Shown here: in pieces, positions 24,042 to 54,992 of the stretch
Layout of the letters: each line of letters starts with the position of its first letter
Numbering within the stretch: position 1 is the stretch's first letter
Origin: Eledone cirrhosa
Taxonomy: Eukaryota
NCBI GenBank assembly: GCA_964016885.1
Contig: OZ024741.1
Coordinates: 30,814,001-30,878,000, forward strand
DNA: 64,000 nucleotides
Direction of reading: 5' to 3'
Position numbers and translations under genes: made by a program
The notes under the pieces: generated by a model
The model's database searches: none
Seen by the model: only the letters and a program-made list of their open reading frames with translations
Told to the model about the DNA's origin: nothing

Positions 24042-24762
24042 ATTAGAATTGGTGCTCTGAAATACCGATATATATATGAATGTATATATAGTGTATTTTG
24101 CAATACAATGTATGCTTAATTAAAAGCATTTCGGAGACCTTACGCTATTGTTTTAGAGTAGTGACAGTCTCACTTACTTTAATTTTCAGCTAACAGGGGA
24201 GGTAAAGTTGACAGAGCTCTGTTTTGCACTTTTTGGTGCTTATCAAAGCTAAGTACTCCGCCTGTTTGCTGAAAATCATTAATGTTTGATTCTTATAGAA
24301 TTCTAGTAATAATCAGGAAATGATTATACAGAGCAATTGTCGGTCAAACAGAAATTGAAAATTAGAATTGGTACAATAGCGTAAGGTCTTCGAAATGCTT
24401 TTGATTAAGCGTACAGTGTATTGCAAAATACACTTTATATACGTTCATATATATATATATCGCTATTTCAGAGCAACAATTCTAATTTTCAATTTCTGCT
24501 TGACCGGCAATTGCTTTGTATATTCTGTTCCTGATTATTACTAAAATTTTATAAGAATCAAACATTCATGATTTTCAGCAAACAGGTTGAGTACTTAGCT
24601 TTGATAAGCACCAAAAAGTGCAAAACAGAGCTCTGTCAGCTTTACCTCCACTGTTAGCTGAAAATTAAAATAAGTGAGACTGTCACTAAAACAATAGCGT
24701 AAGGTCTTCGAAATGCTTTTAATTAAGCATACAGTGTATTGCAAAATACACTATATATACAT
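24042..24762. mobile_element. family C (319-bp unit) non-coding HHR element, inverted arrangement
   Basis: attagaattggt recurs at 24042 and 24361. 24373-24762 is the reverse-complement, permuted unit. Homologues at 31450 and 54525. Confidence 0.85.
24597..24641 (+). ncRNA. family C hammerhead, U3-A8 core, G12 mutated
   Basis: agct TTGATAA gcac caaaaa gtgc AAAA C-agagctct-G TC agct. Mirror copy at 24206-24250. Confidence 0.62.
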
Positions 24763-24959
24763 TTATATATATATATATATATATCCAGGTAAAACTTGAA
24801 CAGTTAAGGTCTCATTCCTGGATATGTCAATATTTATAAAATAAGCTTTGTATTTTATCTGATGAGGGCGTACCAAAGTTTTTCCATTTATTAATATCAT
24901 TGATATATATATATATATATATATATATATATATATGTAATATGTGTGTGAGTGTATAT

Positions 24960-25331
24960 GTCTATCTAGGGCGGGTAAAATTCCCGAGATCCATGGACGA
25001 GTTCTCTCCATCGGTCTCTGTCCCTCATTATCGCTGCCATGTCCTGCGTCACCAACAGACCAGTTTCTGTCCTTAGGGCATCAACATATGATAACCTCGG
25101 TCTACCTCTTCCAGTGTGTCCATGTAAGGGCTCCCACAGGAGCACTGAGTGCAATATCAACTCTGGATGTCGGTGAGCATGTCCAACTAACCTCAGTCTC
25201 TTCTGTGTCACTTTTGAGCTGACATTTGGGATGCTCCCATACAGCTCTGAGTTTTTCATCCTCAGTGTATACTGATTAATGTTCAGAGCCATCCTCAGCA
25301 TTCTCATGTAGCACCCATCCATCATCTGAGC
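24960..25331 (-). mobile_element. 3' end of RTE LINE (non-inverted part of the inverted insertion)
   Basis: AQMMDGCYMRMLRMALNI...RLRLVGHAHRH...GRGRP...DRDRWRELV...*, followed by a tagataga tail. Confidence 0.9.
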
Positions 25332-28231
25332 GATGTCCTGGGTATGAGATTAAACTACATCCAGTGACAAGGCTCCAGTTAGGGAGTCCAGGAGTTGTGG
25401 GGAATGTGGAGTTACCTCTTAGTTGTCATAACTCCCAGGTCTGCTCTGGCCCGGAGTAGTAGTACCGGTTAGGGCTCCGCTTATGGGTTAAATAACTACC
25501 TTATTCGAGTGGCGCCGGTAAGGTATTGTCAGCCATTGAAAAGAAATATGGAGAGTCGAACTCACAGCACTAGGGTTAGAGCCCCTAATTACACTGTCAA
25601 GAAGCAGTATGGACGTTATGACACTGCTGGCTTAGAGCCACAGAGCGGGCCAGTGGATGATGGATCAGCATCTCTGAGACAAATATAAAGAATGCAGTTT
25701 TGTCCTGCAGAAGAGCCATGAAAATGGGCACTTTGAATGTGACGACTATTCGGACGCTGGAGAAGAGAGAGGAGTTGGGACATCTGTTCGAGGAGAGAGC
25801 TATACAGATACTTGCGATCCAAGAACACAAGATCCTAAACGATGAGCCCGTGAGGAGTGTGATGATTGGGATGAGGAGCCAGCTCATCATCCCATCAGGA
25901 GTCAGGAACATGACTAATGCTGCTTTGGGAGGAGTGGGTTTAGTTTTCAGCACAAAAACCAGTCTATTGATGAGGGAAATAATGCTTGTCTCCCCGAGAG
26001 TGTTGAGGGTGACCTTCAATGGAAATCTAAAACTGACAGTCATCTCAGCCTATGGTCCAACCGAGGAAGACAGTGGTGTGGATGCAGAAGAGTTCCATGA
26101 GGAAGTGTGTAAAGCTGTCAACACCACTCAAACACGCAACATCCTGCTTTTTGGGGGGACTTCAATGCACATCTGAGTAAGGAGGGCAGTGAAGAGCCTT
26201 GCTGGTACTTCCATAACAACACCAACCAAAATGGAAGACTACTGAGAGACACCCTGCTGGAGGCGAACTTGATAGCGACCAACCTAGGGTTTAGGGAGAA
26301 TCTGGGGAAGATGTGGACCTACATCTCAGATATGCACCTGTCCATGTCCCAGATTGATTTCATTCTGGTGAGGAAAAATAGGCGGAATAGAGTTCAGAAC
26401 AAAGAACCATACAACTATTTCAGTACACTGGGTAGTGACCACCTTCTTGTTATGTGTGAGGTCCGGGTGAGCTTAAGAAAGTCAAGGCTGAGCCCCGGAG
26501 AGCAATCTATGACCGGGGAGCTTTCAAGGAAGATGATAAGCTACAGGAGAGGTTCACAGTGGAAGTGAGGAACAGGTTCAGTGCTCTGTGTGGAGAGAGA
26601 TAGGAGAGAAAGATTGGATGTACTGAGGAGAGTGTGACAAGGAGGTCCGGGCACTTCACCAATGCAGTGGCGGAAGCAAGTGAAACCCTGGTGCCGAGGA
26701 AAAGGAACAAAAGGAAGCACATCAGCTCTGCAAACCCAAAAGTGTGTGCAGCCAGAGAACACCTGAAAGCTGCCAAGGACCAATTCTATGCTGATCCTAC
26801 GGAGGTGATGAGGGAAGAACTCTGTACCGCTTAGACTGAGGCCAGAGAGGAGGCACTGATAGAGAAGATCAGAAGTGTGGAGAGAGCGGTTGACAGATCT
26901 GGATGTAGGGAGAGCTGGATGATCATCAACAAGATCACAGGGAGGAAGAGATGGTGTTCGAGTCAGATCCAGGGAACGGGGCCCGAGGATAGGAAAAGGA
27001 AATGGCTAGACCATTTTAGGACTCTCCACATCCCAGAGCACTGGGGAGATAAGGCGGCTGTTTGAGGAACTGGATATTGAGACAGAGCCCTTCACCAGAG
27101 AGGAGCTTCAGAGAGCCAAGAAGAGGATCGAGGAGGGTAGGGCTCATTGAGAAGATGGAGTGACATCAGAGGTGATGAAGAGGTGTGATTTTGATGATAT
27201 TACCCTGGGGTTCTGTAACCAGGCACTGGAGAAAGGAGTTGCCCCGAATCAGTGGAGGATCAGTAACATCGTTCCAGTGCCAAGAAAAGGGAGATCTCTC
27301 TAACACCAACAACTACAGGGGGATATCACTGACGTCACTTGTGGCAAAGACCCTCATCAGAATGATTCTTAACAGGATCCAGCCTGAGATGGAGAAGAAG
27401 CTCAGGGACAACCAGAACGGCTTCAGAGCAAGATCAACCACCAGTCACATCCTGATGCTGAGGAGGATATTAGAGGGAGCTAGAGCAAAGTGCCTTCCTG
27501 CGGTCATGGTTTTCATTGACTTTAGGAAGGCCTTTGATTCTGTGGACCGTCACTGCTTGATGAAGATCTTACAGCCTTATGGAATCCCCAAGAAGATAGT
27601 GGACCTGATATCACCGCTCTACACCAACACCAAAGCCCAAGTCATTACACCTGATGGGATGACAGAGTTCTTTTAGATACTGGCTGGAGTGCTCCAGGGA
27701 GATACATTGGCTCCCTACCTTTTTATCAACGTAGTGGACTATTGTATGCCCCTTGCACTGGAGAAACACCAGGACTCTGGCTTTACTGTAGCACCGGCTC
27801 AGAGCAGGAGATAAGGCGAAAAAGGTATCAGATGCTGAATTTGCCGACGACATAGTTTTGGTGACAAATACAGTGAAGGAGGCAGAGGATTTGATGCAGG
27901 AGGTTGAGACTGTGTCGATGAGTGTGGGTCTGAGAATGAATGAGACCAAAACAAAATATCTTGTAGAGAATGTTGAGAAGCCAGAGGGGATTAATAATGT
28001 AGGCGGGATGCCGCTGGAATTGGTTGAGAACTTCCTGTATATGGGAGCAAAGATTGGGAATACAGAAAATGATGTGGTTGAGAGGAAGCGCAAAGCCTGG
28101 GCGGCGTGCCACAGTTTGAGATCGCTGTGGAAGTCAAACCTTCGTAAAGACCTGAAAATCCGCCTCTTCATTGTTGTAGTGGAGTCTGTGCTGCTGTATG
28201 GGTCTGAGACTTGGACACTGACTAAGAAACT
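25332..28231 (+). mobile_element. RTE-clade LINE: 5'UTR, APE endonuclease and RT (pseudogenised)
   Basis: [73 protein letters not shown]. Multiple stops and frameshifts. Confidence 0.93.
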
Positions 28232-54437: not shown

Positions 54438-54510
54438 TAATAATAATAAATTTGAAGACTAAAATCCAAAGAGGGCTCGATAAGGATAAATCTGTTATTT
54501 TAATAAATAT
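54438..54510 (-). mobile_element. family E fragment
   Basis: tttgaagactaaaatccaaagagggctcgataaggataaa is the reverse complement of about 59530-59571. Confidence 0.7.
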
Positions 54511-54524
54511 ATATCTGTATATAT

Positions 54525-54992
54525 ATTAAAATTTGTGCTCTGGAATATCGATATATATATGAATGTATATATAGTGTATTATGCAATACACTGTATGCTT
54601 AATTAAAAGCATTTCGAAGACCTTACGCTATTGTTTTAGAGTAGTGACAGTCTCACTTACTTTAATTTTCAGCAAACAGGGGAGATAAAGCTGACAGAGC
54701 CCTGTTTTGCACTTTTTGGTTATTATCAAAGCTAAGTACTCCACCTGTTTGCTGATTATTACTAGAATTCTATAAGAATCAAACATTCATGATTTTCAGC
54801 TAACAGGCGGAGTACTTAGCTTTGATAAGGACCAAAAAGTGCGAAACAGAGCTCTGTCAGCTTTATCTCCCCTGTTTGCTTAAATTAAAGTAAGTGAGAC
54901 TGTCAATACTCTAAAACAATAGCGTAAGGTCTTCGAAATGCTTACAGTGTATTGCATACAGTGTATTGCAAAATACACTATATATACATTCA
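54525..54992. mobile_element. family C element, inverted arrangement
   Basis: 54525-54753 matches 24045-24271. 54754-54992 is the reverse-complement unit. Confidence 0.85.
54818..54862 (+). ncRNA. family C hammerhead, U3-A8 core with intact GAAA
   Basis: agct TTGATAA ggac caaaaa gtgc GAAA C-agagctct-G TC agct. One mismatch in stem II. Confidence 0.7.

Follow-up and report, generated by a model that had tools for sequence, protein, structure and literature searches.

Positions 3 and 8 of the hammerhead ribozyme core pair with each other, and in several natural hammerheads this pair covaries to U3-A8 (Perreault et al. 2011, PMC3088659); the same paper, citing Przybilski and Hammann (2007), gives the U3-A8 form as having been shown active in vitro. 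Covariation from C3-G8 to U3-A8 was also described in the Cercyon elements of Schistosoma mansoni, a Penelope-like element (PLE) family with about 1,300 matches (Cervera and de la Pena 2014, PMC4209133), in a paper which further states that a palindromic helix III is to be expected in dimer-competent animal hammerheads. Dependence on PLEs has been proposed for animal retrozymes (Cervera and de la Pena 2020, PMC7229834; Li, Clavereau and Pollet 2026, bioRxiv 10.64898/2026.07.22.740005), and two reverse-transcription start points have been described in a Penelope-like insertion (Frangieh et al. 2024, PMC11167929). What hammerheads do in animal retrozymes and PLEs is an open question, given that the cleavage measured is in many cases weak and that one element could do without it in vitro. 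The present analysis concerns family C, a repeat of about 319 nt in the genome of Eledone cirrhosa, which was followed up from a 64,000-nt stretch of contig OZ024741.1 (assembly GCA_964016885.1, positions 30,814,001 to 30,878,000 of the forward strand), referred to as the window.

Family C is a high-copy, non-coding repeat with a type I hammerhead motif, and on at least two occasions the 3-8 pair of this motif changed between C-G and U-A. The repeat is probably a retrozyme that Penelope-type enzymes copy, and selection for self-cleavage has probably maintained it; this reading is given a probability of roughly 80%. It draws on four observations: the hammerhead motif, the series of subfamilies, the covariation and the footprint of the insertions.

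Switching of the 3-8 pair

Well over a thousand copies of family C are present in the 3.0-Gb genome. DNA searches of the genome with the two types of window copy gave 1462 and 2833 candidates, 40 of each being scored. A degenerate 20-nt pattern spanning helix I and the core had 1231 matches against none for its reversed control, so that the motif is not a product of chance, and a second pattern, which took in the core and GAAA together with helix III and the GUC site, had 1885, again with none for the reversed control. The 1231 exact matches comprised 954 with U3-A8, 265 with G8 and 12 with C3-A8; the first 100 of the 265 G8 matches listed were 90 C-G and 10 U-G, i.e., about 27 of the 265 would be U3-G8. 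The preliminary description of the window had named, as grounds for dropping its reading, an independent occurrence of U3 and A8 across copies and a genomic consensus of AAAA. Neither holds: the two mixed states are confined to these small numbers, and GAAA is found in all 14 subfamily consensuses.

A two-by-two table of copy counts was rejected as a covariation statistic because the copies share ancestry, and the tree was therefore taken as the test. Copies from 283 loci and the window, 355 in all, were aligned, and 352 of them were placed in 15 groups seeded by hand, of which one has only one member; three copies were left out. About 14 subfamilies were resolved, whose consensuses form a ladder: E2/E3, E1, B, D2, D1, D3, F, A2/A1, A3, A4 and A3b/A4g. 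The E, F and A subfamilies have U3-A8, B and D have C3-G8, and the small A4g group has U3-G8, making the pair Watson-Crick in 13 of the 14 consensuses. In trees built with the ribozyme columns removed, B and E were split from D and A with support of 100/100, the A clade was recovered at 100/100 and the E clade at 85/97. A single U3-A8 clade was rejected (p-AU 0.025 with 66 copies and 8.5e-5 with 15 consensuses). U3-A8 thus occurs in two lineages separated by C3-G8 lineages, from which it follows that the pair switched at least twice. Both core changes fall together on each of two short branches, B-E1 with 14 substitutions and D3-F with 19; the chance of both changes falling there was 0.002 and 0.004, respectively, over the unit and 0.015 and 0.020 within the ribozyme domain.

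Since the first pattern for E had itself fixed U3-A8 (252 matches), it was repeated with positions 3 and 8 free, and the first 100 of the 181 matches listed were 94 U-A, 3 C-G, 2 C-A and 1 U-G. At the D-to-A switch, 47 matches (23 U-A, 22 C-G, 2 C-A and no U-G) were considered as an intermediate hybrid subfamily, which was rejected when they resolved into two subfamilies, F and D2. Single mutants make up 2-6% of the copies in A3, A4 and E.

The divergence of copies from their consensus is 0.065-0.084 in E, about 0.05 in B and D and 0.02-0.03 in A2-A4; the value of 0.056 for A1, a set fetched by pattern, is suspected to be inflated by decayed array units. An age order based on divergence is suggestive only, the more so as the clusters in E have few members and perhaps need further splitting. 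Taken at face value, the order suggests a round trip from U-A to C-G and back to U-A, for which two parallel gains of U3-A8 are an equally likely substitute. Rooting by a single distant relative with a C3-G8 core was tried and rejected, as the relative joins the tree at the E/B end through a long branch. With A1 out of line with the divergence trend and only this outgroup for a root, the switches can be read in either direction. The relative itself (locus L183, 1865-2157) is about 35% divergent from family C and suggests a wider superfamily.

A more ambitious version, put forward tentatively and rather doubtful, would have one master lineage pass from U3-A8 (E, the oldest) through C3-G8 (B, D) to U3-A8 (F, A), with the U3-G8 sub-lineage, mobile and at the young end, as a third switch caught half-way, and strand-swapped dimers that let an intact neighbour rescue single mutants. 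If it were true, the family would be a dated natural series of about 14 ribozymes in which to test how a catalytic RNA crosses a two-mutation valley.

Core and helices

Nine tested core columns are identical in the 14 consensuses, whereas 50 of the 83 ribozyme-domain columns vary (P=1.2e-4 under a random column draw). Judged from the consensuses, the family has the expected type I hammerhead core, i.e., U4, G5, A6, A9, G12, A13, A14 and A15.1 with a paired 3-8 and an NUH site; among the window copies, three of the five depart from it at G12. The preliminary description had proposed that covariation of the 3-8 pair and stem II be followed across genomic copies, and in 22 real copies changes on both sides were found in all four stem II pairs, in the 3-8 pair and in two helix I pairs. 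Helix cells were paired in 92% of cases, compared with 27-42% when partners were slid. Covariation of this kind argues for helices I, II and III around the core. Selection on the unit, which the preliminary description had supposed, appears to be borne out for the hammerhead fold by at least two double switches, the invariant core and the covarying helices.

The 10.1-11.1 position is U-U in D1 and A-A in E, where the A-A pair lies at the base of a 3-bp stem II. Helix III is palindromic in five different sequence versions of 9-13 nt. In E2/E3 (e.g., L176 and L166), a 4-nt duplication gives a 13-nt palindrome; a GUC site is kept but displaced by 4 nt, and new sequence re-pairs helix I. Subfamily A4 (genome G000; L234-L253, L078 and L090) has 209 exact matches with an extra A between C11.1 and G12 and a U3-A8 core. 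The ribozyme sits within a long extension of helix I, and whole units fold with z = -4 to -8 (40 shuffles); fold energies are from a nearest-neighbour model, with the E rows left out.

Copies in the window

All five family C copies of the window have the type I hammerhead motif, one with C3-G8 and four with U3-A8 (Table 1). They are weak evidence when taken alone, because they show one inherited event. The C3-G8 copy is canonical, as had been claimed, with CUGAUGA, stem II ACGC/GCGU and GAA, and the UUGAUAA attributed to the other four was found in each, beginning at position 3. The claim that all four have stem II of the GCAC/GUGC type stood only for the two copies near 24 kb, which are clean; the copy at 54689 has UAAC/GUGC, with two pairs broken, and the one at 54818 has GGAC/GUGC, with one broken. 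Helix III of the 54689 copy is ACAGGGCUCUGU, and the 24206 copy has AACU in place of AGCU after the cleavage site. The C3-G8 copy is decayed, helix III reading ACAGGUUGU compared with ACAGACUGU in its subfamily, and about 30 nt are missing directly 3′ of helix I; its unit has about 71% identity with the A1 copies in a local alignment. The 24-kb insertion is laid out as a minus-strand unit with a tail of about 25 nt at the left end, followed by a 3′ fragment on the plus strand and a near-full plus-strand unit that has a short end. A descriptor scan of the window that required GAA returned only the motif at 31597 and an unrelated candidate at 41659. When short stretches were compared with Rfam, HH9 (RF02275) was the best match for both core types, with 22.5 bits (24597 copy) and 25.1 bits.

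Table 1. Family C features in the window; numbers in brackets are positions 3/8 and 12 of the hammerhead core
Feature	Position	Strand	Remarks
Family C insertion, subfamily A1, two-armed, in (TA)n	24043..24775	both
Type I hammerhead motif, U3-A8 (24246/24241), G12A (24225)	24206..24250	-	predicted cut after C17 at 24210
Type I hammerhead motif, U3-A8 (24601/24606), G12A (24622)	24597..24641	+	predicted cut after C17 at 24637
Two short hairpins directly before the fixed 3′ end	24715..24750	+	compensatory changes between subfamilies
Single decayed subfamily B unit and short 3′ piece of preceding unit	31451..31755	-
Type I hammerhead motif, C3-G8 (31597/31592), G12 intact	31560..31601	-	helix III and distal helix I damaged
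Two-armed inverted insertion, subfamily A type, both arms 5′-truncated, left-end tail	54525..54995	both
Type I hammerhead motif, U3-A8 (54729/54724), G12A (54708)	54689..54733	-	stem II broken at 2 pairs
Type I hammerhead motif, U3-A8 (54822/54827), G12 intact (54843)	54818..54862	+	1 stem II mismatch

The repeat unit and its insertion footprint

The unit length of 319 nt given in the preliminary description agrees with the modal spacing of same-strand hammerheads, which is 319 nt in 5 of the 16 such pairs (range 280-324); besides these tandem pairs, many insertions are monomeric or inverted. In the fetched loci, 566 of 615 unit matches stop within the last 25 nt of the consensus and the starts are scattered, from which the strand with the hammerhead is likely the RNA strand and the copies are 5′-truncated. 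Insertions take the form of monomers, partial tandems or two arms pointing outwards, and 76 of 91 two-armed insertions have one end with a tail of about 25 nt and one short end. TA repeats adjoin about two thirds of the 3′ ends, compared with 16% of the other ends. No open reading frame (ORF) of 100 aa was found inside the units of the window, and in the fetched loci no match to a PLE protein fell inside units. The repeat thus has what is expected of a non-autonomous Penelope-like element, i.e., a fixed 3′ end, 5′ truncation, partial tandem, inverted arm and tailed end, and also what is expected of an animal retrozyme, i.e., a type I hammerhead in a non-coding unit of about 170-400 nt, and tandem copies that each have a hammerhead. 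The footprint is that of PLEs and the anatomy that of an animal retrozyme.

The two hairpins before the 3′ end covary, one of them via a U-G intermediate in D1 and D3, and may be the recognition signal for the copying enzyme. Two other small hairpins lie in the 5′ third of the unit, at about unit positions 35-85 (window 24510-24560), where conservation between subfamilies exceeds that of the ribozyme region. One locus (L233, G000:C1:82389800-82396800) is a decayed head-to-tail array of A-type units with 18 matches, several of them with damaged cores.

Loss of G12

Three of the four U3-A8 copies in the window have A at position 12, as had been reported. The arms at 24 kb belong to one insertion and have five private changes in common, G12A among them, so the three cases amount to two events. 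G is the consensus at this position in every subfamily, which makes G12A a matter of decay. It is found in 9 of 155 A-type copies, or in 9 of 111 without the A3 sets, which were fetched with G12 fixed. Pooled CpG transitions amount to 83/1421 (5.8%), compared with 152/5955 (2.6%) for G>A outside CpG; G12A therefore proceeds at the pooled CpG rate, about twice that of non-CpG G>A, which agrees with the CpG decay suspected earlier, and position 12 would be expected to decay more quickly in A-type copies, where C11.1-G12 forms a CpG. Position 24622 was read as G in about 99% of the depth on independent DNA contigs (three runs of one sample, of unrecorded kind but resembling genomic contigs), a figure used for the G12 majority only. 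Inverted arms share 10.6% of their private changes, compared with 2.8% in unrelated copies of a subfamily.

Proposed mode of copying and points against it

In the proposed scheme, tandem or read-through transcripts would fold the hammerhead inside a long helix I. The RNA would then be cleaved after GUC, either in monomeric form or in a dimer held by the palindromic helix III, to release RNA of unit length, which may be circularised. A Penelope-type reverse transcriptase/GIY-YIG protein supplied in trans would nick (TA)n, and copying of this RNA from two starts separated by about 25 nt would give tandem or inverted arms with one tailed end. Large subfamilies would be founded only by source copies with a paired 3-8, and copies would decay neutrally after insertion.

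Several results weigh against this reading. Among the 150 matches listed, of 176 in an Rfam scan of the whole window, almost all of them microsatellite-driven miRNA families, no hammerhead family appeared, and both HH9 scores lie below the gathering threshold of 52, which places the motif outside that family. In energy, the active fold of the monomer falls well short of the minimum-energy fold (e.g., -8.3 compared with -17.8 kcal/mol in A1). The subfamilies were built from manual seeds, the patterns used to fetch several of the sets had core bases fixed, and the shuffle control of the covariation test ignores the relatedness of the copies. The small U3-G8 sub-lineage, an exception that tells against strict pairing, is represented by 5 of the first 100 of 209 matches listed, at three loci, two of which share diagnostic letters; the group is partly circular, since its members were found by being U3-G8. 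G12A was likely present in the template of the 24-kb insertion, or copied between its arms, and its occurrence in both arms means that an individual copy may be able to insert with a damaged core. No autonomous partner with homologous ends was found in the window or in 253 fetched loci, no dedicated search of the genome having been made. When the PLE proteins of the window were compared with these loci, PLE remains were found near 22, at no consistent distance or strand; they were rejected as the helper element on these grounds and read as co-insertions in TA repeats. From the literature, a Poseidon element inserted in vitro without a need for cleavage (PMC11167929), and cleavage of Xenopus dimers was seen in 1 of 9 (bioRxiv 10.64898/2026.07.22.740005).

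Some of these points would be accommodated if the hammerhead fold were selected because it binds protein or stabilises RNA for the Penelope machinery, and not for cleavage, which is held to be improbable. Cleavage was dispensable for insertion of PAc in vitro (PMC11167929), low activity was reported for metazoan PLE hammerheads (PMC4209133), and a G12A template may have inserted in the window. Against this, none of the 14 consensuses differs in the catalytic bases or the GUC site, and E2/E3 kept a GUC site and re-paired helix I after their 4-nt duplication; this is more than a binding scaffold would usually need.

The count of events would be reduced to a single informative one if U3-A8 had arisen once and moved between subfamilies by template switching or gene conversion. 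Subfamilies do coexist, side by side in some loci (L265, L274 and L280), but the sequence on either side of the core in E (GGUU before it and ACGC after it) is B-like or private, which would limit a conversion tract from A to less than about 9 nt, and this history is considered quite improbable. Least credible of all, and very improbable indeed, is that a dead motif acquired the double change through neutral drift with an AT bias (C>T, G>A), and that founder effects then froze it. In favour of such drift, each change is a transition in the direction of A/T and the members of a subfamily have a common ancestry, but the two occurred together on two separate short branches, the sets sampled contain no large single-mutant subfamily, and the remaining core is invariant. 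Selection of the cleaving fold in a PLE-copied retrozyme is the reading that is retained.

Other elements in the window and fetched loci

A Penelope-like element with long inverted arms lies at 41545-46971 and has remains of a reverse transcriptase and endonuclease (43337-45105, minus strand). The candidate at 41659 (minus strand) is a separate C3-G8 hammerhead with a long stem II, about 115 nt from the 3′ end of this element. A second, two-armed inverted Penelope-like insertion at 28383-30921 has GIY-YIG remains at 29558-30259 (plus strand; Pfam PF01541, E 2e-4, just under the cut-off), and a descriptor scan of it gave no canonical hammerhead. Reverse-transcriptase remains (PF00078) were found at 25661-28133 and 61955-62833, and a further repeat family with inverted arms at 1959-2866, 36072-36307 and 60416-61395. 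The window also has a 19-nt tandem array of about 150 units (6305-9173) and a 204-bp triple repeat (50004-50617). Outside the window, at position 980 of both L185 and L187, an unrelated C3-G8 hammerhead with an 8-bp helix I and an A on both sides of stem II occurs in a different short repeat that lies about 520 nt away from an A3 insertion; the two loci appear to be duplicates.

Comparison with known systems

The novelty that the preliminary description implied for the U3-A8 switch was overstated, as natural U3-A8 hammerheads have been published, including those of a Penelope-like family (PMC3088659, PMC4209133), and family C adds no new ribozyme class, core variant or element type. No repeated switch of the 3-8 pair within one family, placed on a subfamily ladder, was found in the literature searched, which left most subscription papers outside its coverage. 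Two flips of the core pair with the other tested catalytic bases fixed are good comparative evidence for selection of the active fold during amplification, and the family supplies natural constructs for direct assay, including the U3-G8 lineage and the one with the extra A before G12.

The natural U3-A8 hammerheads in the parts of PMC3088659 cited here are scattered examples, whereas family C offers a history within one family. Like the Cercyon PLEs, it shows U3-A8 covariation, found by homology in a Penelope-like family (PMC4209133). The Cercyon hammerheads are described there as minimal, with no real helix III, and lie in the pseudo-long terminal repeats (pLTRs) of coding elements; family C, in contrast, has a helix III of 9-13 nt, an HH9-like loop 2 (CAAAAA in A1) and no ORF. 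Stem II length and loop 2 are the same as in Rfam Hammerhead_HH9 (RF02275), outside of which the scores place it. With PLE insertions (Craig et al. 2021, PMC8557442; PMC11167929) it shares the partial tandem, the inverted 5′-truncated arm, the tail at one end, the (TA)n target and, in the proposed scheme, reverse transcription from two starts, the tail being about 25 nt as opposed to the 30-40 nt given for PLEs. With the animal retrozymes that lack long terminal repeats (PMC7229834; bioRxiv 10.64898/2026.07.22.740005) it has in common the non-coding repeat of about 300 nt, the canonical-shaped type I hammerhead, the thousands of copies, the tandem dimers and some arrays. Unlike the retrozymes described in those texts, family C occurs mostly as dispersed, two-armed inverted insertions in (TA)n, and its hammerhead is dominated by a U3-A8 pair that was switched at least twice.

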